This document shows, one piece after another, positions 56,267 through 64,000 of a DNA stretch of 64,000 bases. The stretch lies in sequence record KT454805. One strand, 5' to 3'. Under the pieces are notes generated by a model that did not search any database, was not told the origin of the DNA, and worked only from the letters and a program-made list of their open reading frames with translations. The number at the start of each line of letters is the position of its first letter. The stretch's first letter is position 1. The DNA comes from Escherichia phage phiSUSP1. Made by a program: the position numbers and the translations under genes.

Positions 56267-57682
56267 ATGAGCGATTTATTTAAACATTCGCACCTCCATG
56301 CAGGGCGAACTGAAAATGGTGCTGTTAACCATACATCATCAATGTCTGCCTTGGTAGACTTCTATAAAGCTGCTGGCTCAAGCCGTGGCAATGTAGAGAT
56401 TCTCCCAGACTTGTTCTACAAAGCTTTGCGTGAGGATGTTGATGTAGCAGTTCGTATTTTACTGCATATGCGAGATGTACGAGAAGGTATGGGTGAGCGT
56501 AAAGCTTTCCGAACTGTCCTCTTACAAGCAATCGAAGATAACATTCTGGATTCTTTCCAAGTTCTTCGTATCATGGATAAGATTTCTGAATTAGGTCGTT
56601 TCGATGACTTCAAAATCTTCGTAGGTACTCGTTATGAGACAGATGCTTTCAAGCATTTAGAAGCAGCCTTGTTAGACCCTGATACAGCAGGTTTAGCAGC
56701 TAAGTGGTTACCACGAGTAAAACCACGCCACAAAAAGTTTGTAAAACGTTTCTGTAAGTTTGCAAACTTGAGTGAGAAAGAATACCGTACACTGTTATCA
56801 GCTTTGTCTGATACCGTTGAACAGAAAATCTCTACAAATAACTTTGGTGAGATTGACTACAGCAAGATTCCTTCACTGGCTGCTGCACGTTACCAAAAAC
56901 TGTTCAGCAAGAAAGACGGTGAACGTTATACAGCTTACGTTGAAGCTTTATCCAAAGGTGAGGCCAAGATTAATGCTGGTGCTGTGTACCCATACGATAT
57001 TCTGAAGTCCGTTAATCATGGTAAAGCAAGTGTTGCAAACGAACAGTGGAAAGCATTACCAAACTGGATGGCAGAAGGTGAAAACATTCTGTGCATGTCA
57101 GATGTATCAGCGTCTATGACTTGGCAGACATTTGGTTCTGTAACTGCTCTTGATATTGGCCTGTCTTTGGCGTTATATGTCTCAGAACGCAATACAGGGT
57201 GCTTTAAAGATGAGTTAATGGTTTACTCCACAAGACCTCACTTTATCACTCTGAGTGGTGATTTACAGACTCGTATGCGTCAAGTAATGAGTCATGTTGA
57301 GTATGGTTCAACAAACCTGCAAGCAGCATTTGACCGTATTCTTGAAATTGGTGTAAGAAATGGCTTGACTCAGGTAGCAATGCCAAGTAAGCTTATTATC
57401 TTCTCTGATATGGAGTTCAATCAGGTTGACGGTGCAAATGGTTGTACAAACTTCGAAGCAATTCGTAGTAAGTACGAAAAAGCTGGATACGAAATGCCAC
57501 AACTGGTATTCTGGTACTTAGCAAACCGTAATGGTACTTGCGAAGTGTCTGTTAAGGATAATGGTGTAGCAATGGTATCAGGTTTCTCTCCAGCCACTTT
57601 AAAAGCTCTGCTTGGTGGTGAGAAGTTTGACCCAATCAGCGTAATGCTCAAAGCAGTAATGATTGACCGTTACATCTGGTAA
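56267..57682 (+). CDS. Ro60-like protein (TROVE-like N-domain plus vWA domain with MIDAS)
   Basis: AVYPYDILKSVNHG, CMSDVSASM, LIIFSDMEFN, VSGFSPATLKAL align with human Ro60 RIHPFHILIALETY, AVDVSASM, FIVFTDNETF, MCGFDTGALDVI. Confidence 0.7.
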   Translation: MSDLFKHSHLHAGRTENGAVNHTSSMSALVDFYKAAGSSRGNVEILPDLFYKALREDVDVAVRILLHMRDVREGMGERKAFRTVLLQAIEDNILDSFQVLRIMDKISELGRFDDFKIFVGTRYETDAFKHLEAALLDPDTAGLAAKWLPRVKPRHKKFVKRFCKFANLSEKEYRTLLSALSDTVEQKISTNNFGEIDYSKIPSLAAARYQKLFSKKDGERYTAYVEALSKGEAKINAGAVYPYDILKSVNHGKASVANEQWKALPNWMAEGENILCMSDVSASMTWQTFGSVTALDIGLSLALYVSERNTGCFKDELMVYSTRPHFITLSGDLQTRMRQVMSHVEYGSTNLQAAFDRILEIGVRNGLTQVAMPSKLIIFSDMEFNQVDGANGCTNFEAIRSKYEKAGYEMPQLVFWYLANRNGTCEVSVKDNGVAMVSGFSPATLKALLGGEKFDPISVMLKAVMIDRYIW

Positions 57683-57699
57683 AAAGTTTTAAAAAGGGT

Positions 57700-57728
57700 A
57701 TTGACAATCTGCTCGATACCCTTTAATA
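57700..57728 (+). promoter_or_regulatory. sigma70-like promoter for tRNA cluster
   Basis: TTGACA-N17-TAATAT; -35 flanked by inverted repeat AAGGGTAT...ATACCCTT. Confidence 0.6.
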
Positions 57729-57848
57729 TGTTCTACATAGAAACGAAATCGAGAGTTTTTCTAAGATACTGAAAAATATTTTAAAAAAGTTCTTGACAAC
57801 CACTAAAAAATAATGTTAAAGTGGTTACATAGAGTTTGAAAAGATTAT

Positions 57849-57925
57849 CTCCGTTTAGCTCAGTTTGGTAGAGTGCGCCGTTTGGGGCGGTGAGGTCGAA
57901 GGTTCAATCCCTTCAACGGAGACCA
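57849..57925 (+). tRNA. tRNA-Pro (anticodon TGG)
   Basis: acceptor CTCCGTT/AACGGAG, T-arm GGTTCAATCC, loop TTTGGGG; CCA encoded. Confidence 0.75.
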
Positions 57926-57932
57926 AATTAAT

Positions 57933-58010
57933 GTTCCAGTAGACAAATTGGTAAAGTCACCACACTTTCAATGTGGAGTTTTGAGGGTTCAAGTCCCTTC
58001 TGGAACGCCA
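57933..58010 (+). tRNA. tRNA-Glu (anticodon TTC)
   Basis: acceptor GTTCCAG/CTGGAAC, T-arm GAGGGTTCAAGTCCCTT, loop CTTTCAA. Confidence 0.75.
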
Positions 58011-58017
58011 AATTTGA

Positions 58018-58082
58018 CAGAAGACCAAGTACAGCAAATAACTTTACTTTTCGCGCATAGAAAACTTAAAAGTTTGGTCTGG
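58018..58082 (+). ncRNA. inverted-repeat-bounded inter-tRNA element E1
   Basis: CAGAAGACCAA...TTGGTCTGG, 7-bp closing stem AGACCAA/TTGGTCT. Confidence 0.4.
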
Positions 58083-58093
58083 TCATAAAAGTT

Positions 58094-58170
58094 CGCGGGT
58101 ATAGAGAAAGGGCGTCTCACATGTCTCATTAGCATGGTATCGGCAGGTTCGACTCCTGCACCCGCCTCCA
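58094..58170 (+). tRNA. tRNA-Met/Ile2 (anticodon CAT)
   Basis: T-arm GCAGGTTCGACTCCTGC, loop CTCATTA, 3' ACCCGCC-T-CCA; 5' boundary uncertain. Confidence 0.6.
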
Positions 58171-58176
58171 AATTTG

Positions 58177-58239
58177 CAGAAGACCGTTTACAGCAATCTC
58201 AAAAATTTTTATCGGAAAAAATGAAAAGATACGGTCTGG
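58177..58239 (+). ncRNA. inverted-repeat-bounded inter-tRNA element E2
   Basis: CAGAAGACCGT...ACGGTCTGG, 7-bp closing stem. Confidence 0.4.
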
Positions 58240-58252
58240 CAATACTAAACAT

Positions 58253-58329
58253 GGTGAGGAAGCACATAAGGCATGTGCGGTCGGCTGTTAACCGAATGGT
58301 ATAGGGTTCGAATCCCTAACTCACCGCCA
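58253..58329 (+). tRNA. tRNA-Asn (anticodon GTT)
   Basis: D-arm GCAC-ATAAGGCAT-GTGC, loop CTGTTAA, T-arm TAGGGTTCGAATCCCTA, CCA encoded. Confidence 0.75.
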
Positions 58330-58399
58330 AGATTTGGGAGAGAAGCGTAATGCTCACCGATTTGTAAGGTGTAAGTCCTTAGCCTGAATAGAATAAAAT

Positions 58400-58487
58400 G
58401 CGTCGTTATCCCGTAGATGGAAGCGGTGGTGACTGTAAATCACTTGTCATTATGACTCGGTAGGTTCGACTCCTTCACGGCGCACCA
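58400..58487 (+). tRNA. tRNA-Tyr (anticodon GTA), class II
   Basis: 88 nt with long variable arm; loop CTGTAAA; acceptor GCGTCGT/ACGGCGC. Confidence 0.7.
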
Positions 58488-58493
58488 AATAAA

Positions 58494-58571
58494 GGTTATG
58501 TAGTTTAATCTGGTTAAAATACCTCACTGTCACTGAGGAAGATGAGGGTTCAAATCCCTTCGTAACCGCCA
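58494..58571 (+). tRNA. tRNA-Asp (anticodon GTC)
   Basis: anticodon arm CCTCA-CTGTCAC-TGAGG; T-arm GAGGGTTCAAATCCCTT. Confidence 0.75.
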
Positions 58572-58632
58572 ATTTTGAGAGGGCTTTCTAGCCCCTCCCT
58601 TAAAGAGTTCTTACGAGTATTCTTTAAAGGAG

Positions 58633-58709
58633 CAGAAGACCAAATTCAGCAAGCCAACTTAAAAAATTTCAAGCCAATTTAATTTTGAAAAATTTAAAAC
58701 TTGGTCTGG
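58633..58709 (+). ncRNA. inverted-repeat-bounded inter-tRNA element E3
   Basis: CAGAAGACCAA...TTGGTCTGG closing stem. Confidence 0.4.
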
Positions 58710-58722
58710 CTCAACAAATTTA

Positions 58723-58849
58723 CAGAAGACCGTTTACAGCAAGTATAAAACAATCTATTTCTCTGGTAAAGAAAAGGAGAAGGTTCGATTCCTTCACACG
58801 TTACGGCGTGTTGGTGTAATGGTAGCACTTAAGATAAACAACGGTCTGG
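58723..58849 (+). ncRNA. structured element E4 with tRNA-like T-arm (Y-RNA-like candidate)
   Basis: closing stem AGACCGT/ACGGTCT; internal hairpins GAAGG-TTCGATT-CCTTC (T-arm-like), ACACG-TTACGG-CGTGT, GTGT-AATGGTA-GCAC (D-arm-like); no anticodon arm. Confidence 0.4.
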
Positions 58850-58998
58850 TAATCCTCTTTGCAGTGACTTATGGAGCTAAATGTCGTCCCATGAGTGCCG
58901 ATGAATTTCCTTAGCATGATTCTAGATTAGCTTAATAGGAAATGACTCTACAAACCCTTTAGCAAGGTTTGCGTAGGTTACTGCAAAGATGATTTAAT

Positions 58999-59074
58999 GG
59001 GGGTGTAGCAGAAAGGTGATGCGGCAGACTTTTAATCTGACAGGCGACGGGTTCGAATCCCTCCACTCCCACCA
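58999..59074 (+). tRNA. tRNA-Lys (anticodon TTT)
   Basis: acceptor GGGGGTG/CACTCCC, loop CTTTTAA, T-arm GACGGGTTCGAATCCC. Confidence 0.7.
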
Positions 59075-59078
59075 ATAT

Positions 59079-59155
59079 GGTTCAGTCGCAGATAAGGTAA
59101 TGCAAGGGTTTCATAAGCCCTATGAATGTGGGTTCGAATCCCATCTGAACCTCCA
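59079..59155 (+). tRNA. tRNA-Met/Ile2 (anticodon CAT), second copy
   Basis: acceptor GGTTCAG/CTGAACC, loop TTCATAA, T-arm GTGGGTTCGAATCCCAT. Confidence 0.7.
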
Positions 59156-59156
59156 A

Positions 59157-59232
59157 GCTGGTATAGTTAAGAAGGTTATAACACTCCCCTGATAAGGGAA
59201 CATCGGTGGTTCGATTCCACCTACCAGTACCA
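59157..59232 (+). tRNA. tRNA-Ile (anticodon GAT)
   Basis: loop CTGATAA, T-arm GGTGGTTCGATTCCACC, acceptor GCTGGTA/TACCAGT. Confidence 0.7.
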
Positions 59233-59247
59233 ATTTCAATAAAGTTG

Positions 59248-59276
59248 TTGACATGGAGATGTGACTACTTTATAGT
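59248..59276 (+). promoter_or_regulatory. sigma70-like promoter inside tRNA cluster
   Basis: TTGACA-N17-TATAGT. Confidence 0.6.
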
Positions 59277-59509
59277 AGCCTTAGTTTTCGTTAGCGTAGC
59301 GTCTATTTTGCAAACTTAAAAATAAATGCAAACGATAATGCTTTTCTGGCAGTAGCTTAATAGGCTAAACACCAGTGAGGTCTTCCAATTCCTCATCAAA
59401 GAATTTGGCGTACTCGCCCACGGTATGATTAATAAGGTGGGCAACATTCTAAAGGGTATCCCGTATGGGGCTTGGCTTAAATGCAATGAGTACCCTTTAA
59501 AATGTTAAT

Positions 59510-59586
59510 GCACCCTTAGTTCAATTGGATAGAGCAAGTGCCTTCTAAGCACTGAGTTACAGGTTCGAGTCCTGTAGGGTGTGCCA
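59510..59586 (+). tRNA. tRNA-Arg (anticodon TCT)
   Basis: anticodon arm AGTGC-CTTCTAA-GCACT, T-arm ACAGGTTCGAGTCCTGT. Confidence 0.75.
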
Positions 59587-59593
59587 GTTTAAT

Positions 59594-59715
59594 GGTCAAG
59601 ACAACACTAGTAAGCCATCTGGATACATGTTAACAGATGTACGAAAGTCGGAAAGTTGCTGAAGGTTAGCTACCTTCGAGAGTAAGTAGGTTCGACTCCT
59701 ACCTTGACTGCCAAA
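59594..59715 (+). ncRNA. atypical tRNA-like element (possible pseudogene or insertion-containing tRNA)
   Basis: perfect T-arm GTAGG-TTCGACT-CCTAC and 3' CTTGACT-G-CCA pairing with GGTCAAG ~120 nt upstream; no canonical D-arm. Confidence 0.3.
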
Positions 59716-59849
59716 TAGTTAGCAGATTACTTAGACGACCTTAGCGGGTCTCCGTGTTGATTCAGATGAGTCAACTTCATAAGGAGGTGGTCTGTATCTC
59801 ATGTTTTCCAGAACATGTAAATAATCTGAGAAGAGGCTTGACAGTGTTG

Positions 59850-59878
59850 TGACAATACGGTAAGCTTCGAATTATAGT
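59850..59878 (+). promoter_or_regulatory. sigma70-like promoter
   Basis: TGACAA-N17-TATAGT upstream of tRNA-Trp and HNH gene. Confidence 0.5.
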
Positions 59879-59884
59879 GTTAAT

Positions 59885-59955
59885 AGGGGTGAGCTAAGGC
59901 AGCAATAGAGTCTCCAAAATTCTTGATTAGAGTTCGAATCTCTACACCCCTGCCA
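59885..59955 (+). tRNA. tRNA-Trp (anticodon CCA), short D-arm
   Basis: acceptor AGGGGTG/CACCCCT, loop CTCCAAA, T-arm TAGAGTTCGAATCTCTA; 71 nt. Confidence 0.6.
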
Positions 59956-59969
59956 GAATAGGTACTTGT

Positions 59970-60374
59970 ATGAAACTTTGTAGAAAATGCTCACAAGAAA
60001 AACCTTTAAGTTGTTTTCATAAGCGTGGTAATGGATACCAGTCAGTATGCAAAGATTGCAAATCCAAATACTCTTCTAAGAAGTATCAAGAAGACCCAAC
60101 TTATAAAGCTAAAAGGAAAATTAGGGCGGTAGCTGACAGAAAAAGAAACAGAGAGTTTCTTAACCGATACAAAAGAATCTGCAAATGCAGAGTTTGTGGT
60201 GAATCTGAACCAGTAGCATTAGACTTCCACCATTTAGACCCAAATGAAAAAGACTTTGAACCTAGCAATTTAAAGACTTACTCTAGAGGGACTATTAAGA
60301 GAGAAGTTAGAAAATGTGTTGTACTGTGTTCTAACTGTCATAGGAAAGTTCATGCAGGACTGTTAGAGGTTTAA
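59970..60374 (+). CDS. HNH endonuclease inside tRNA cluster
   Basis: Cys pairs CRKC...CKDC...CRVC and DFHHLDPN...LCSNCHRKVH HNH motif. Confidence 0.7.
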   Translation: MKLCRKCSQEKPLSCFHKRGNGYQSVCKDCKSKYSSKKYQEDPTYKAKRKIRAVADRKRNREFLNRYKRICKCRVCGESEPVALDFHHLDPNEKDFEPSNLKTYSRGTIKREVRKCVVLCSNCHRKVHAGLLEV

Positions 60375-60388
60375 CAGTCTTATTAGGG

Positions 60389-60475
60389 GTAGATAGCGGC
60401 TAATGGAAGCCAAATTGTCTTGAAAACAATTGCCATTGTAGTGATACGGTGAGGGTTCGACTCCTTTATCTACCG
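60389..60475 (+). tRNA. tRNA-Ser (anticodon TGA), class II
   Basis: 87 nt with long variable arm; anticodon arm ATTGT-CTTGAAA-ACAAT; CCA not encoded. Confidence 0.65.
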
Positions 60476-60628
60476 CCTAATGAGATTTAAGCCCACGCTC
60501 TGGTACAGCGTTCGGTTTCCCTCGTGTATTGTCGTACACGCACAACAAAGCACCTAGTAGGTGTCACGGAGAAGAGATAATATCAAGCTCTCCAAAGGTT
60601 CTAGTCACCGGATTAAACAAGACTATGC

Positions 60629-60648
60629 AAAGACCAGTTAGGTCTTTT
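60629..60648 (+). terminator. rho-independent terminator
   Basis: AAGACC-AGTTA-GGTCTT followed by TTT; ends a ~150-nt structured non-tRNA segment. Confidence 0.5.
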
Positions 60649-60718
60649 TAGAGAATTGTTAAGGCATTTGATACCATTGTTGCTTTGGCGTCTTAGCAGT
60701 TCTCTACAAAGATTTAAT

Positions 60719-60796
60719 GGGAGATTGACGGTAATTGGTAAACCTACCATCCTTAGAAGTTGGTGTTTGAGGGTTCGAATCCCTTGTCTCCTACCA
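60719..60796 (+). tRNA. tRNA with anticodon read as TAG, class I
   Basis: acceptor GGGAGAT/GTCTCCT-A-CCA, T-arm GAGGGTTCGAATCCCTT; anticodon arm CCATC-CTTAGAA-GTTGG is a 1-nt variant of the Val tRNA arm. Confidence 0.5.
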
Positions 60797-60803
60797 AATT
60801 AAT

Positions 60804-60879
60804 GCAGGTGTAGCAAAATGGTTATGCGGCTGACTCTTAATCAGTAAGACGATGGGTTCAATTCCCTCCACCTGTACCA
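60804..60879 (+). tRNA. tRNA-Lys (anticodon CTT)
   Basis: paralog of tRNA-Lys(TTT); loop CTCTTAA with compensatory stem change. Confidence 0.6.
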
Positions 60880-60885
60880 AATATT

Positions 60886-60961
60886 GGGGTTGTAGTTTAA
60901 ATGGTTAAAACATAAGTTTTGCAAACTTAAGTACAGGGTTCGATTCCCTGCTTCTCCACCA
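60886..60961 (+). tRNA. tRNA-Cys-like (anticodon GCA), imperfect acceptor stem
   Basis: anticodon arm AAGTT-TTGCAAA-AACTT, T-arm CAGGGTTCGATTCCCTG; two U-U mismatches in acceptor; possible pseudogene. Confidence 0.4.
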
Positions 60962-60967
60962 ATTAGT

Positions 60968-61042
60968 GCATCCATAGTTTAAACGGGAAAATTACAGTCT
61001 TCCAAACTGAGGTTGAGGGTTCGATTCCCTCTGGATGCTCCA
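60968..61042 (+). tRNA. tRNA-Gly (anticodon TCC)
   Basis: acceptor GCATCCA/TGGATGC perfect; loop CTTCCAA. Confidence 0.75.
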
Positions 61043-61049
61043 AATTAAT

Positions 61050-61125
61050 GCTCCTATCGTATAATTGGCTATTACGGTTGCCTTGTAAGCAACTTATCAG
61101 GGTTCGAATCCTTGTGGGAGCACCA
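61050..61125 (+). tRNA. tRNA-Thr (anticodon TGT)
   Basis: anticodon arm GTTGC-CTTGTAA-GCAAC; acceptor GCTCCTA/TGGGAGC. Confidence 0.75.
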
Positions 61126-61221
61126 ATTCAGAGGTCGAGTGAAAGACCGCTTGAGTCAACTGAAGACCGTAACAAATTCCACGGAGTTGAGTTAGCGGCA
61201 CAACTTCAGACCTCTTTTCAT

Positions 61222-61296
61222 ACTCGCTTAGTTTATACGGTAAAGCCCCATCCTTACAAGTTGGTGAAGAAGGTTCAAGTCCTTCAGCGAGTACCA
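61222..61296 (+). tRNA. tRNA-Val (anticodon TAC)
   Basis: loop CTTACAA as in E. coli tRNA-Val; acceptor ACTCGCT/AGCGAGT; T-arm GAAGGTTCAAGTCCTTC. Confidence 0.7.
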
Positions 61297-61298
61297 AT

Positions 61299-61376
61299 GT
61301 TCCAGTATCCCAATTGGCAGAGGATGCAAGCTCAAACCTTGTATTAGTGACGGTTCGAATCCGTCTTGGAACACCA
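61299..61376 (+). tRNA. tRNA with anticodon read as CAA, class I
   Basis: acceptor GTTCCAG/TTGGAAC-A-CCA; anticodon arm GCAAG-CTCAAAC-CTTGT; T-arm GACGGTTCGAATCCGTC. Confidence 0.5.
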
Positions 61377-61392
61377 ATTTTAGGAGATTCCT

Positions 61393-61605
61393 ATGAAGCC
61401 TTATGGTAGACACGGTAAAGTTGAAATTGCAAGTTGTGGTTGCTGTGCTTCTCACGATGGTGAAGAAGATTACTACAAGTGGCGTACAGACCATCGTAGA
61501 CGCTTTCTCAGAAGAGATAAGAAGAGAGCTAGACAGGAATCTCAAAAGAACATTGCAGAATTAGTTCAAATGGATAGAGCAGCAGCCTACGAAGTTGCTT
61601 GTTAG
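61393..61605 (+). CDS. small basic Cys-containing protein; 3' end overlaps tRNA-Arg
   Basis: AGGAG RBS 7 nt before ATG; 70 aa; last ~50 nt overlap tRNA 61555-61631. Confidence 0.25.
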   Translation: MKPYGRHGKVEIASCGCCASHDGEEDYYKWRTDHRRRFLRRDKKRARQESQKNIAELVQMDRAAAYEVAC

Positions 61606-61631
61606 GGGTTCGAATCCCTTATTCTGCACCA
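61555..61631 (+). tRNA. tRNA-Arg (anticodon ACG)
   Basis: acceptor GCAGAAT/ATTCTGC perfect; anticodon arm GCAGC-CTACGAA-GTTGC. Confidence 0.7.
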
Positions 61632-61650
61632 ATTTAAAGAGGCTATTTAA

Positions 61651-62208
61651 ATGAGATATTTGAAGTATGCTTCATGGATTTTCCTAGCTTTGCTAGAGCC
61701 ATTTGCAGCAATCTTAGCAGTAATCTTAGCACCCTTTGTGGTTCCATTCTACAGTGAGAGGAAAGGTCACTTACCTTTTGGATTCAGATGGATGGAAACT
61801 TATGATAACCCGATTGACGGTGACAAAGGTCACGTTGAGCGATGGGCTAAGATTCGAAAGATTGGTAAGCTCGGTGTTTATATGCAGAGAGTTGGATGGC
61901 TCTGGAGAAACAAAGCTTATAACTTCTCTTACCATGTATTAGGAAGAGATGTAAAAGATGTTACTAAGTGGAAAGGTAATATCAACGTAAGTTCTAACCC
62001 TGAAGATAAACAGACAGGTTATCTCCTGATGTGGAACAGTAATGCTTGGGGTTTATTCGCTTTTATCCCGTCAATTAAAATCTTTGGTAAACAATTTTAC
62101 TGGAGAATTTATGTTGGTTGGAAACTTAAAAGTGTTGTCCCAGAAGAAAGAGCATTTTCAAGGGAAAGAATTATGTTGGCATTCTTTATTCATCCACTAA
62201 GAAAGTAA
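61651..62208 (+). CDS. hypothetical protein with N-terminal hydrophobic helix
   Basis: AAGAGG RBS; WIFLALLEPFAAILAVILAPFVV; 185 aa inside tRNA cluster. Confidence 0.4.
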   Translation: MRYLKYASWIFLALLEPFAAILAVILAPFVVPFYSERKGHLPFGFRWMETYDNPIDGDKGHVERWAKIRKIGKLGVYMQRVGWLWRNKAYNFSYHVLGRDVKDVTKWKGNINVSSNPEDKQTGYLLMWNSNAWGLFAFIPSIKIFGKQFYWRIYVGWKLKSVVPEERAFSRERIMLAFFIHPLRK

Positions 62209-62216
62209 AGATTTAA

Positions 62217-62292
62217 AGGGGATTAGTTTACAAGGTTAAAACCTCGGTCTTTGAAATCGAAGAAGTTGGTTCAATTCCAACATCCCCCGCCA
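62217..62292 (+). tRNA. tRNA-Gln (anticodon TTG)
   Basis: anticodon arm TCGGT-CTTTGAA-ATCGA; T-arm GTTGGTTCAATTCCAAC; A1-C72 mismatch. Confidence 0.65.
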
Positions 62293-62294
62293 AT

Positions 62295-62373
62295 GCTCCA
62301 TTACTCCAATTGGCAGAGAGGCCAGACTTAAAATCTGTGTTATGTATCGGTTCGAATCCGATATGGAGTACCA
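62295..62373 (+). tRNA. tRNA with anticodon read as TAA
   Basis: acceptor GCTCCAT/ATGGAGT-A-CCA; loop CTTAAAA in a Lys-tRNA-like arm; 7-nt variable loop. Confidence 0.5.
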
Positions 62374-62380
62374 AATTAAT

Positions 62381-62456
62381 AGCAGTGTAGCATAACTGGC
62401 AATGCTCCAGCCTCTGAAGCTGAAAGATTAAGGTTCAAATCCTTACGCTGCTGCCA
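62381..62456 (+). tRNA. tRNA-Gln (anticodon CTG)
   Basis: anticodon arm CAGC-CTCTGAA-GCTG; T-arm TAAGGTTCAAATCCTTA. Confidence 0.65.
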
Positions 62457-62487
62457 CTTCTAAGGGTTCTTACGAGAGTCCTTACAT

Positions 62488-62564
62488 GTGTCCTTATCAT
62501 AAATGGATAATGACCCATGCTGTGAACATGGTCTATACGGGTTCGATTCCCGTAGGTCACCCCA
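62488..62564 (+). tRNA. tRNA-His (anticodon GTG)
   Basis: D-arm TCAT-AAATGGATA-ATGA, anticodon arm CCATG-CTGTGAA-CATGG, discriminator C73. Confidence 0.7.
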
Positions 62565-62572
62565 AATTTAAT

Positions 62573-62648
62573 GGGTTAAGTAGCTTATATGGTTAAAGCG
62601 CGTGTCTGAAAAACATGAGAAGAGGGTTCAAATCCCACTAACCCGCCA
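62573..62648 (+). tRNA. tRNA-Phe (anticodon GAA)
   Basis: anticodon arm CGTGT-CTGAAAA-ACATG; acceptor GGGTTAA/CTAACCC. Confidence 0.6.
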
Positions 62649-62665
62649 ATTTCAAAAGGTGCTTA

Positions 62666-63400
62666 ATGAAAGAGATGACAGAACAAGGTAAAGAGATTTT
62701 TAATCTCCTGAAATCCGGTAACGGGTTTTCTAACCCTCTTATTACTGGTGCAGCAATCCTTGGTGGCACAATTGCCGCTTCTACTTCATTAGTAAGCTCT
62801 ATTAGCTCGGTATCAGACCCTACAGTAAAAGATAAACTTATTGCTGCTGGTTTGACTACAGCCTTGTTAAGTAGCTTCTCAACGAGCCTTGGAAGCACTA
62901 CAACGACAACTAACACTTTGACTCAATACGGGCAGAAGTCTGTAGATGAGTTCTCATCACGTATGCAGGTAGCTAAAGGTTACTCTAACGTTATGGGTGC
63001 AGCAGGAGAACAAGTTGGTTGTACACCGTTTAGTGGAATCATGGGAGTAGCTACAGAGTACGGTCAAAAAGCTATGGATTTGATTAACACCTCCATAGAC
63101 ACTGTGAATGGCGTTCTAAGTGATTTGCAAGATGCAATCAACAAAGGACTAGATACTATATCTCCCTTAGCCTCACAAGCCGTTACAGCGATTAATCAGG
63201 GCATTGCTAAGATTACTGCATATGCTAATGAGGTCACTCAGATGATTGCAGATGAAGCAGCGTTAATTGCTGATTACTTGAAAACGAATATCAATGGTTT
63301 CCTTGCAGGTATCTTACCAGACTGGTTTGATGATGCTTGTAAAACTGGCGTGATTGATTCAATCGCAACTCCAGAGATGAAGGATGCCTTGAATAAATAA
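62666..63400 (+). CDS. hypothetical Ser/Thr/Ala-rich protein
   Basis: 244-aa ORF between tRNA-Phe and tRNA-Ser. Confidence 0.4.
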   Translation: MKEMTEQGKEIFNLLKSGNGFSNPLITGAAILGGTIAASTSLVSSISSVSDPTVKDKLIAAGLTTALLSSFSTSLGSTTTTTNTLTQYGQKSVDEFSSRMQVAKGYSNVMGAAGEQVGCTPFSGIMGVATEYGQKAMDLINTSIDTVNGVLSDLQDAINKGLDTISPLASQAVTAINQGIAKITAYANEVTQMIADEAALIADYLKTNINGFLAGILPDWFDDACKTGVIDSIATPEMKDALNK

Positions 63401-63402
63401 TT

Positions 63403-63495
63403 GGAAGATTAACCCTAAAAGGTAAGGGAACAGTTTGCTAAACTGTCAGTAACCGAGAAATCGGCGTACCAGTTCAAGTCTGGTATCTTCCTCCA
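63403..63495 (+). tRNA. tRNA-Ser (anticodon GCT), class II
   Basis: 93 nt; acceptor GGAAGAT/ATCTTCC perfect; anticodon arm ACAGT-TTGCTAA-ACTGT; long variable arm. Confidence 0.75.
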
Positions 63496-63503
63496 ATTTA
63501 ATG

Positions 63504-63578
63504 CGTCGATGACAGAAATGGCTATGTGCCTGTCTGCAAAACAGGATTATGAGGGTTCGACTCCCTTTCGACGCTCCA
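63504..63578 (+). tRNA. tRNA-Cys (anticodon GCA)
   Basis: acceptor GCGTCGA/TCGACGC perfect; anticodon arm CCTGT-CTGCAAA-ACAGG. Confidence 0.75.
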
Positions 63579-63612
63579 AATTATTTTACTCTCTCTCAAA
63601 ATAAAATAATAA

Positions 63613-63673
63613 CGCCCTGCTACGAGTATTCTTCCTTTCGCTACCGAAGAGTATTTTTAGACAGGGCTTTTTT
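63613..63673 (+). terminator. rho-independent terminator closing the tRNA operon
   Basis: CGCCCTG...CAGGGC followed by TTTTTT. Confidence 0.55.
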
Positions 63674-63738
63674 ACAGATGTATACTTTATAAGAAGACTT
63701 ATACAGTATGTCTCTGGCATACATTGTGGTTTCTCCTT

Positions 63739-63766
63739 GACGGTCTCTGCGCCGTCTTTTTTCAGG
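63739..63766 (+). terminator. second rho-independent terminator
   Basis: GACGG-TCTCTGCG-CCGTC followed by TTTTTT. Confidence 0.55.
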
Positions 63767-63799
63767 AGAACCATTCACTTATTATTTTGGAGAAATACA

Positions 63800-64000
63800 A
63801 TGAACGAGACTAATGTTTACAAAGAACTTTATGAAGCAAACAAAAGAGCCGAACTGTTGCAGAACACTATTATCAGTGTTGCTCACCGTCTGGCTAATGC
63901 AACTGGTAAGGACATTAAAGAAACCAATATGGATGAACTGTTAGACGCAGTTGATGCAAAGTTTGGTGTTAAGGCTGCCGAAGAAGTTGCTGCTGAATAA
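63800..64000 (+). CDS. hypothetical small protein
   Basis: GGAGAAA RBS then ATG 63800; 66 aa; stop at window end. Confidence 0.4.
   Translation: MNETNVYKELYEANKRAELLQNTIISVAHRLANATGKDIKETNMDELLDAVDAKFGVKAAEEVAAE

Follow-up and report, generated by a model that had tools for sequence, protein, structure and literature searches.

Transfer-messenger RNA (tmRNA) is usually described either as one molecule or as a base-paired pair of molecules that unites a chargeable tRNA-like domain with a message. Among phages, two tmRNA-database papers list such genes only in mycobacteriophages, Bacillus phage G and DS6A (PMC4131195, PMC11915505). The partial, phage-encoded mini-tmRNA of DS6A, which keeps only the tRNA-like domain, plausibly interferes with host trans-translation (PMC4131195). 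Here we analyze a 64,000-nucleotide (nt) stretch of Escherichia phage phiSUSP1 (record KT454805; hereafter the window), a member of the genus Suspvirus of the Ounavirinae with about 97% identity to the Escherichia phages mistaenkt and SUSP2. Its tRNA island (57849-63578; 25 tRNAs by ARAGORN) houses three segments, numbered 1 to 3, in whose ranges (59233-59509, 60478-60718 and 61126-61221) neither ARAGORN nor the Rfam tRNA model finds a cloverleaf tRNA. A sequence-only reading of this DNA had presented segment 1 as a promoter-driven, structured leader of the adjacent tRNA-Arg(UCU) gene, and the other two as similar to it. We propose instead that segment 1 is very probably a tmRNA homolog without the tRNA-like domain, in which the message part and pseudoknots have been kept. 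It would be the mirror image of the DS6A molecule, the family of segment 1 having the mRNA-like domain and pseudoknots only.

From its sequence, 59277-59509 is predicted to be a stand-alone RNA gene descended from tmRNA, and closest to the coding piece of permuted (two-piece) phage tmRNAs (RF04321 tmRNA_permuted and RF01850 beta_tmRNA; here L057, L029 and L122, L numbers being our labels for the sequences compared). As in those pieces, there is an AAUAAAU-GCA AAC GA resume context, a tag of about 10 codons of the AND...AA type, stop codons in the helix 5 loop, a pseudoknot directly 3' and a GGUUUCGAC-like motif near the 5' end. Unlike them, segment 1 has no 5' acceptor strand, no separate acceptor piece (T arm, CCA) and no recognizable pseudoknot 1. 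With Escherichia coli tmRNA (SsrA, tag ANDENYALAA) it shares a tag that starts ANDxx, continues with an aromatic or hydrophobic residue and has a small hydrophobic end, a frame-setting sequence rich in A/U that has U at -5 and A at -4, and the succession of helix 5 and pseudoknots. It differs in the C-terminus of the tag, which in the family is LAVA, LMAA or LAAA rather than ALAA, in the missing tRNA-like domain and in having two downstream pseudoknots rather than three.

The tag frame and its conservation

The core of segment 1 reads AAAAAUAAAU GCA AAC GAU AAU GCU UUU CUG GCA GUA GCU UAA UAG, which would encode ANDNAFLAVA followed by two stops. The Rfam tmRNA and tmRNA_permuted models both align exactly to the resume region and tag (AAAAAUAAAUGCAAACGAUAA), at 30.6-30.8 bits for RF04321, whose gathering score is 47, and at 14 bits for RF00023. 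ARAGORN reads the same frame as a tag in phages Moogle and Mordin. The sequence-only reading had found no open reading frame (ORF) in the roughly 225 nt after the promoter. This holds for long ORFs on the + strand, where no ATG ORF of at least 30 amino acids occurs; what had been missed is the conserved 10-codon tmRNA-type frame at 59328-59357. Two other frames were considered and rejected. A 56-amino-acid TTG ORF on the - strand (59316-59486), a 'hypothetical protein' in some GenBank records, loses its open frame outside the Ounavirinae, and the stems beneath it covary. An AUG-frame micro-ORF (MQTIMLFWQ) is conserved in neither length nor sequence.

Other lineages have the predicted tags ANDNVFLAVA, ANDNTFLAVA, ANEEMYLAVA, ANDDVVLMAA, ANDAQFLAVA, ANDEQFLAVA, ANDDLMLAAA, ANDTQYLAVA and similar ones. 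The 21 distinct tag sequences always have 10 codons and follow the pattern AN[DE]x x[FYVM]L[AM][AV]A. All changes in codons 2, 7 and 10 are synonymous, codon 3 switches between D and E alone, and variability is greatest at third positions. Upstream of the frame, (U)AGUUUUCG is present in nearly all family members, with weak alignment in the Kuttervirus sequences L013 and L062. In bona fide phage two-piece tmRNAs from IMG/VR the GGUUUCGAC segment follows the acceptor strand, as in GGGGCUGACAAGGUUUCGACAGGGCG of L057, which ARAGORN calls permuted.

Conserved secondary structure

Covariation was assessed in alignment A1 (28 distinct sequences) for helix 5, the hairpin and loop pairing of pseudoknot A, and stem 1 of pseudoknot B (Table 1). 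Standard pairs occupy 90.6% of cells, as against 33-48% after the 3' partners have been shifted by 1-3 columns, and 73 double-sided changes were counted, against 21.6 in shuffled alignments; none of 500 shuffles reached 73. The outer stem of helix 5 is paired in every sequence, with G-C to A-U double changes in five of them. Stem 1 of pseudoknot A has double-sided changes at three pairs, and its stem 2 appears as CCAA:UUGG, CCGA:UCGG, CCAG:CUGG, CUAG:CUAG and CUCC:GGAG. In pseudoknot B stem 1 covaries, and stem 2 takes at least six different complementary sequences across lineages around the conserved AUUAAUAA loop. The GCCCAC/GTGGGC pairing of the sequence-only reading is indeed present, at 59416-59421/59437-59442 (about 2 nt from where it had been placed), as this second stem of a pseudoknot and not as a simple hairpin. 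The resume context, tag frame, helix 5 and two pseudoknots are all under purifying selection. The same reading had named conservation of structure in related phages as a check, and for segment 1 the covariation lies far above the controls. A pseudoknot 1 was not found upstream of the tag, where there is only an A/U hairpin (59304-24). As a whole, 59283-59509 folds below the shuffled expectation, with a minimum free energy z-score of -2.2.

The 3' part of the segment is a long hairpin, which includes the AAGGGTA/TACCCTT pairing at 59452-59458/59491-59497, just where it had been reported. Its tip (59460-59489) is common to hairpin modules of the copies in lambdoid prophages, and some relatives carry a short (indel) variant. 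Such modules, with the conserved stem (C)ACAAC-AGGUAAGAGCAUUG...CAGUGCUCUUUCC-GUUGUG and variable tips, stand beside the tmRNA-like core, sometimes in tandem, in L018, L043, L047 (near the tag), L115, L139 (2876-2942) and others. In several of them the tip holds a T arm directly before the 3' strand, giving a D-armless tRNA-like shape, and the 'AGGUAAGAGC...GCUCUUUCC' modules count among the co-encoded tRNA-like RNAs. The window hairpin is a diverged module with the same tip as the prophage copies.

Table 1. Positions of predicted features of the three segments and the adjoining tRNA gene in the window
Feature	Position	Strand	Basis
Sigma-70 promoter TTGACA-N17-TATAGT of the tmRNA-like RNA gene	59248..59276	+	11/12 consensus match, conservation
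Conserved 5' motif UAGUUUUCG	59282..59290	+	resembles the GGUUUCGAC 'D-loop' segment that starts two-piece tmRNA coding pieces
Frame-setting AUAAAU (SmpB-type), tag frame GCA...GCT (ANDNAFLAVA), TAA TAG	59322..59363	+	sub-threshold Rfam alignment, family conservation
Helix-5-like hairpin, CUGG 59346-49 / CCAG 59372-75 plus inner stem, stop codons in loop	59346..59375	+	covariation
Pseudoknot A: stem 1 UGAGG 59376-80 / CCUCA 59391-95; loop CCAA 59385-88 with UUGG 59405-08	59376..59408	+	covariation
Pseudoknot B: stem 1 CGUAC 59409-13 / GUAUG 59423-27; stem 2 GCCCAC 59416-21 / GUGGGC 59437-42; loop AUUAAUAA	59409..59442	+	covariation
3' terminal long hairpin ('module')	59444..59505	+	RNAfold; 87% identity over 39 nt to L139, L035, L037
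tRNA-Arg(UCU)	59510..59586	+	ARAGORN, Rfam
Segment 2 core: hairpins 60523-40, 60551-63, 60568-93 and intrinsic terminator 60629-49	60523..60649	+	conservation in relatives
Long hairpin between terminator and tRNA-Leu(UAG), with compensatory changes	60649..60706	+	alignment, RNAalifold
Segment 3: ~86-nt irregular hairpin RNA, invariant apical loop AACAAAUUCC	61130..61215	+	fold energy, conservation

Promoter

The promoter, exactly where the sequence-only reading had put it, is the best sigma-70 match in the region 57600-63800. In Ounavirinae relatives TTGACA is invariant and the -10 sequence is TATAGT or TAAGAT. Since promoter-like sites as a whole are not above chance in this region (9 seen, 13.1 expected), support for the promoter comes from the quality of its match and from its conservation. 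Analogous promoters lie directly 5' of the same RNA in phage KpV2811, in Erwinia phage Hena2 and in an SSU5-like plasmid.

A family of RNAs in phages, prophages and plasmids

A covariance model (R1, from alignment A2) was built from members outside the Ounavirinae only. In the window it matches 59316-59447 with 120.3 bits (E=3.6e-25), the next match having E=2. Held-out members score 56-157 bits, and genuine permuted phage tmRNAs only 20-24 bits; because R1 separates the two in this way, the family is well defined, and forms a clade distinct from the permuted tmRNAs and from ordinary tmRNAs. The window locus has all of the family features: the UUUUCG 5' motif, the AUAAAU-GCA 10-codon frame, helix 5, and pseudoknots A and B with the AUUAAUAA loop.

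BLAST with 59277-59509 found 654 phage records. The core (approximately 59318-59443) is 70-85% identical in Ackermannviridae (Kuttervirus, ~157 kb), Schitoviridae (~72 kb), Klebsiella phages of ~46-60 kb, Erwinia Kolesnikvirus and a bat-gut siphovirus. Among 5426 complete E. coli genomes, 329 have the element. It occupies 97 chromosomal places; the one examined belongs to a lambdoid prophage, where ~1 kb of non-coding DNA separates the Q antiterminator gene from the holin gene and the element lies within it, just after tR'. A further 237 places are on plasmids of ~105-115 kb, and the copy examined there adjoins a tRNA cluster and has its own promoter and the predicted tag ANEEVYLAVA. In PLSDB the plasmid variant is found on 754 mostly non-mobilizable plasmids of ~100 kb from Enterobacterales (Klebsiella 310, Escherichia 224, Enterobacter 88, Salmonella 45, Yersinia 43, including Y. 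pestis), which, from their size and hosts, we take to be phage-plasmids of the SSU5/pHCM2/pMT1 type. The element gave no BLAST match to ssrA itself, and the E. coli matches examined were all in prophages or plasmids; it is thus not a recent capture of the host gene. A scan of genome contigs with CGGTRTGATTAATAA gave, among the matches listed, chance matches only, none with a tag.

tRNA-Arg(UCU) adjoins the element in several lineages. In Salmonella phage FSL SP-058 (Schitoviridae; L015:2331-3587) the gene just 3' of the tmRNA-like RNA is annotated COG0222 (ribosomal protein L7/L12), which may be coincidence.

In the searchable full-text literature on tag peptides, tmRNA-like and ssrA-like phage RNAs and the relevant virus genera we found no description of these RNAs. 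Segment 1 belongs to a large, apparently undescribed family of RNAs of enterobacterial mobile elements. Its carriers include well-studied, therapeutically used phages (Felix O1-like, CBA120/Vi1-like and G7C-like), lambdoid prophages of Shiga toxin-producing E. coli, where it lies in the Q-dependent late leader, and SSU5/pMT1-type phage-plasmids, among them those of Yersinia pestis. In the records listed, the element lies in unannotated DNA or beneath a dubious 'hypothetical protein'. It was itself unannotated in every record inspected. Several of the carrier phages are cultivable strains used in the laboratory or in therapy, and the finding also has a bearing on genome annotation and phage engineering.

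Possible function

We tentatively suggest that the RNA may serve as a surrogate tag template on stalled ribosomes, its entry function coming in trans from a partner; we put the chance of this at slightly below even. The promoter would drive synthesis of an RNA of about 230 nt with its 3' end at the tRNA-Arg boundary, where an RNase P cut at the 5' end of the tRNA may release it. This RNA would then act in ribosome rescue, on the tmRNA-SmpB pathway of the host. Where ribosomes stall in the infected cell, rare AGA codons being one example, they would resume on the GCA codon and append ANDNAFLAVA in place of the host ANDENYALAA, an alanyl-tRNA-like entry function being supplied in trans by the partner. 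Translation of the tag is favored by the peptide-like pattern of substitutions and by the retention of ANDxx[F/Y] and a hydrophobic C-terminus. ANDxx[F/Y] is similar to the stretch of the host tag to which SspB binds, and the hydrophobic C-terminus is similar to ClpX degrons; engineered tags that end in LVA are efficient degrons. The adjacent tRNA-Arg(UCU) decodes AGA, and its location fits a tag-encoding role, tmRNA tagging being classically caused by rare AGA codons. Roche and Sauer reportedly observed in 1999 that such codons provoke it in E. coli, and the adjacency links the RNA to this known cause.

A broader proposal, which we regard as improbable as it stands, is that a previously unrecognized class of tmRNA derivatives, common to the phages, prophages and phage-plasmids of enterobacteria, re-templates stalled host ribosomes although it has no tRNA-like domain itself. 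Conceivably the RNA would be loaded with host SmpB and its GCA resume codon decoded by ordinary Ala-tRNA, or its partners would be the D-armless tRNA-like 'modules' or mini-helices that are found beside it in several lineages. If so, the proteolysis tag on proteins stalled during infection would shift from ANDENYALAA to AN(D/E)xx(F/Y)LAVA. A message-plus-pseudoknot version of tmRNA that is so widely maintained would mean either that stalled ribosomes can be given a template by a route not yet recognized, or that viruses have a new strategy by which ribosome rescue and ClpXP/SspB-directed proteolysis are jammed or redirected.

Several results weigh against a tmRNA-type role for segment 1. ARAGORN reports no tmRNA in the window, and within 59277-59509 there is no T-loop motif, T arm, CCA or acceptor stem. 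The -10 box occupies the place of a 5' acceptor strand, and the promoter leaves no room for one. The Rfam scores of 25-31 bits are below the gathering score of 47, and real phage permuted tmRNAs reach 124-130 bits. Family members from IMG/VR were fetched with the 14-mer ATAAATGCAAACGA, so that the first ~2.7 codons of their tags are fixed by construction; members derived from BLAST are unaffected by this bias. Tag codons 7-10 are also part of helix 5, and some of the 'coding' constraint could be structural. The complete genome of KpV2811, which carries the RNA with its own promoter, has no tRNA, tmRNA or tRNA-like Rfam match at E<=1. Finally, we know of no mechanism by which a stalled ribosome would take up a template that has no tRNA-like domain.

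These absences suit the main rival explanation, in which an untranslated mimic acts as a decoy or competitor. It would titrate SmpB, ribosomal protein S1 or RNase R, or occupy stalled ribosomes, and host trans-translation would be damped, so that fewer phage proteins are tagged and degraded. In favor of this, a tRNA-like domain is missing in cis and from the whole of KpV2811, and the strongest sequence invariance in the family is in RNA motifs (AUAAAUGCAAACGA, the AUUAAUAA loop and UUUUCG), of which the 5' motif is a possible remnant of the SmpB-binding D-loop segment. DS6A, which encodes a form with the tRNA-like domain only, sets a precedent, a similar molecule being a strong inhibitor of tmRNA (PMC4131195, PMC11915505). 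However, SmpB binds mainly at the elbow of the tRNA-like domain, which is absent here, and the tag itself looks as if it were selected as a peptide, with its constant 10 codons, its synonymous or conservative changes and a position 6 (Tyr in the host) that stays aromatic or hydrophobic. We consider a decoy rather unlikely on this balance.

A different suggestion, that segments 1-3 are Y-RNA-like ligands of a Ro60-like protein, arises from the surroundings. The tRNA island is preceded by a gene for a 471-amino-acid protein with DUF2828 and DUF7788 domains, and in a preprint on the related phage Bas63 the DUF2828 protein was named Ro60-like from its predicted structure, with the speculation that some neighboring 'tRNAs' are Y RNAs (PMC11482910). 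A PDB sequence search with the DUF2828/DUF7788 protein gave no match. The three segments resemble YrlA and other Y RNAs in their position near a Ro60-like (DUF2828/vWA) gene in an island of tRNA-like RNAs; the island also holds four Y-RNA-like repeats (CAGAAGACC...GGUCUGG, within 58018-58849), and segment 3 and the repeats have the 9-mer GAAGACCGU in common. Unlike YrlA, none of the three segments folds with a terminal Ro-binding stem or has a permuted tRNA-like module, and the Rfam YrlA and Y_RNA models do not match them even at E<=5. Segment 1 is found in genomes without an annotated DUF2828 gene, such as KpV2811, and the segment 3 homolog of phage TH18 travels with DUF7338 rather than DUF2828. 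We judge this explanation to be highly improbable.

That segment 1 is a transient 5' leader or spacer of the tRNA-Arg operon, with no stable product, is hardly tenable. It does abut tRNA-Arg directly and would be co-transcribed with it, but the same RNA, again with its own promoter, is not followed by a tRNA in the tRNA-free genome of KpV2811 or in the Q-holin gap of lambdoid prophages, it retains 70-85% identity with compensatory changes across unrelated virus families, and a spacer role does not explain the tmRNA-type frame. The sequence-only reading's leader interpretation is abandoned on these grounds, and its suggestion of candidate small RNAs in place of throw-away spacers gains from the conservation of the segments and, for segment 1, from the promoter. 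Equally implausible is a decaying, non-functional pseudogene of a phage tmRNA that was once complete. Neither the tRNA-like domain nor pseudoknot 1 is left, and in some lineages vestiges of the 3' end persist without a T arm, but four helices are maintained by compensatory changes, the promoter is retained, and copies number in the hundreds among virulent and temperate phages and phage-plasmids, with R1 scores of 56-157 bits across deep divergence.

Search for an acceptor partner

In the proposed tag-template role the entry function would be supplied by a partner, and several candidates were considered. In Moogle and Mordin ARAGORN predicts a 'permuted tmRNA' of 750 nt, in which the tag is combined with a Y-RNA-like T arm and with the tRNA-Lys D arm. 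We judged this prediction an artefact; in Moogle it is a copy of the Y-RNA-like repeat that is misused as the tmRNA acceptor piece. A search of the window for an acceptor strand complementary to the 5' end of the RNA (AACTAAGG) gave matches below chance expectation, none of them beside a T arm.

At 59594-59713 there is a tRNA-like RNA of about 120 nt that is annotated by no tool. It has the acceptor GGUCAAG/CUUGACU, a canonical T arm and a 3' GCCA, and two extra hairpins replace its D and anticodon arms; it was found in Suspvirus and Mooglevirus. Comparable 'long tRNA-likes' occur near the tmRNA-like RNA in Erwinia (L016 ~1880-1960) and Kuttervirus (L013 ~2237-2365) phages. As an acceptor piece, the RNA at 59594-59713 was rejected: its stem is self-closed, with U3:A70 rather than G3:U70, it is absent from Felixounavirus, and its complementarity is only 6-8 nt.

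A mini tRNA-like element in Salmonella phage SenASZ3 (Kuttervirus; L013:2164-2236) lies ~60 nt 3' of the tmRNA-like core. Its acceptor, AUGGGAG/CUCCAAU, contains a G3.A70 mismatch, and the element also has a GAAA-loop hairpin, a T arm and an encoded C-CCA. Conservation is 95-100% across 105 records, but all of these are from Kuttervirus, and the element was rejected as a general partner. Since KpV2811 has no tRNA-like element, a phage-encoded acceptor partner is not general. Apparent remnants of a tmRNA 3' end that has lost its T arm were seen by eye in some lineages, such as CUGGACGCGUAACCAGC in L018.

Segments 2 and 3

The similarity that had been claimed among the three segments is not detectable. 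R1 matches segment 1 only, and segments 2 and 3 do not match the tmRNA-like loci. They are separate, lineage-restricted conserved RNAs. Like small RNAs from tRNA spacers, such as E. coli 3'ETS-leuZ, they lie between tRNA genes and would be freed by tRNA processing; unlike RNAs of that type, with which they have no sequence relation, segment 3 is a closed hairpin and not a single-stranded sponge.

The hairpins at 60523-60540 and 60551-60563 and the terminator at 60629-60649 that had been described for segment 2 were all recovered. The segment 2 core is nearly invariant among relatives that are 83-100% identical overall. Virtually all of the 252 records that contain the segment belong to the Ounavirinae, and its fold is not unusually stable (z=-0.96). 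The terminator stem AAAGACC/GGUCUUU and the following U5 are conserved; a simple terminator scan did not list it. No promoter was identified for segment 2. In phage CHB7 an endonuclease gene is inserted between segment 2 and tRNA-Ser, so the segment is separable from this tRNA. Like terminator-ended trans-acting small RNAs, it ends in an intrinsic terminator with a U-tail, and can reasonably be considered a terminator-ended small-RNA candidate separate from segment 1.

Segment 3 is closed by AGAGGTC/GACCTCT (61130-61136/61209-61215), as had been noted. Its fold has z=-3.78, none of 200 shuffles being equally stable, and 235 records carry it with 95-99% identity. In the Vequintavirinae phage TH18 there is a homolog whose outer stem shows a compensatory change, from GAGGUC/GACCUC to GAUGUC/GACAUC, and which lies after a tRNA and before a DUF7338 gene whose protein is 77% identical. 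The 9-mer mentioned above is all that segment 3 has in common with the Y-RNA-like repeats.

Other features of the tRNA island

The four Y-RNA-like repeats, E1-E4, lie at 58018-58082, 58177-58239, 58633-58709 and 58723-58849, and have the frame CAGAAGACCnnnUnCAGCAA ... nnnGGUCUGG. In E4 a T arm (58779-58795) is followed by an acceptor-like hairpin and then by a D-arm-like segment, the order seen in YrlA-type Y RNAs. None of the repeats matches Rfam YrlA; the Rfam tRNA model gives a partial match of 28.8 bits at 58742-58795.

Two tRNAs were missed by ARAGORN. tRNA-Trp(CCA) at 59885-59955, with an A1:U72 pair, scores 32.6 bits with Rfam, and tRNA-Tyr(GUA) at 58400-58487, with a long variable arm, scores 22.8 bits; tRNAscan annotates tRNA-Tyr in relatives. 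A 70-amino-acid ORF (61393-61605; a hypothetical protein in relatives) overlaps the 5' two-thirds of tRNA-Arg(ACG) (61555-61631) on the same strand. At 59780-59800 the sequence UAAGGAGGUGGUCUGUAUCUC is a near-perfect complement of the 3' end of 16S ribosomal RNA, followed only by a 7-codon ORF. A 24-mer at this site is 96% conserved in Erwinia phage Hena2 (L016:2326-2349), where the spacer DNA is otherwise unrelated.

Homing-endonuclease genes of the HNH and PD-(D/E)XK types differ among relatives both in kind and in their insertion sites between tRNAs (59970-60374 in the window; also L001, L004, L009 and L011). The tRNA island is a mosaic in which conserved RNAs are separable from the flanking tRNAs.

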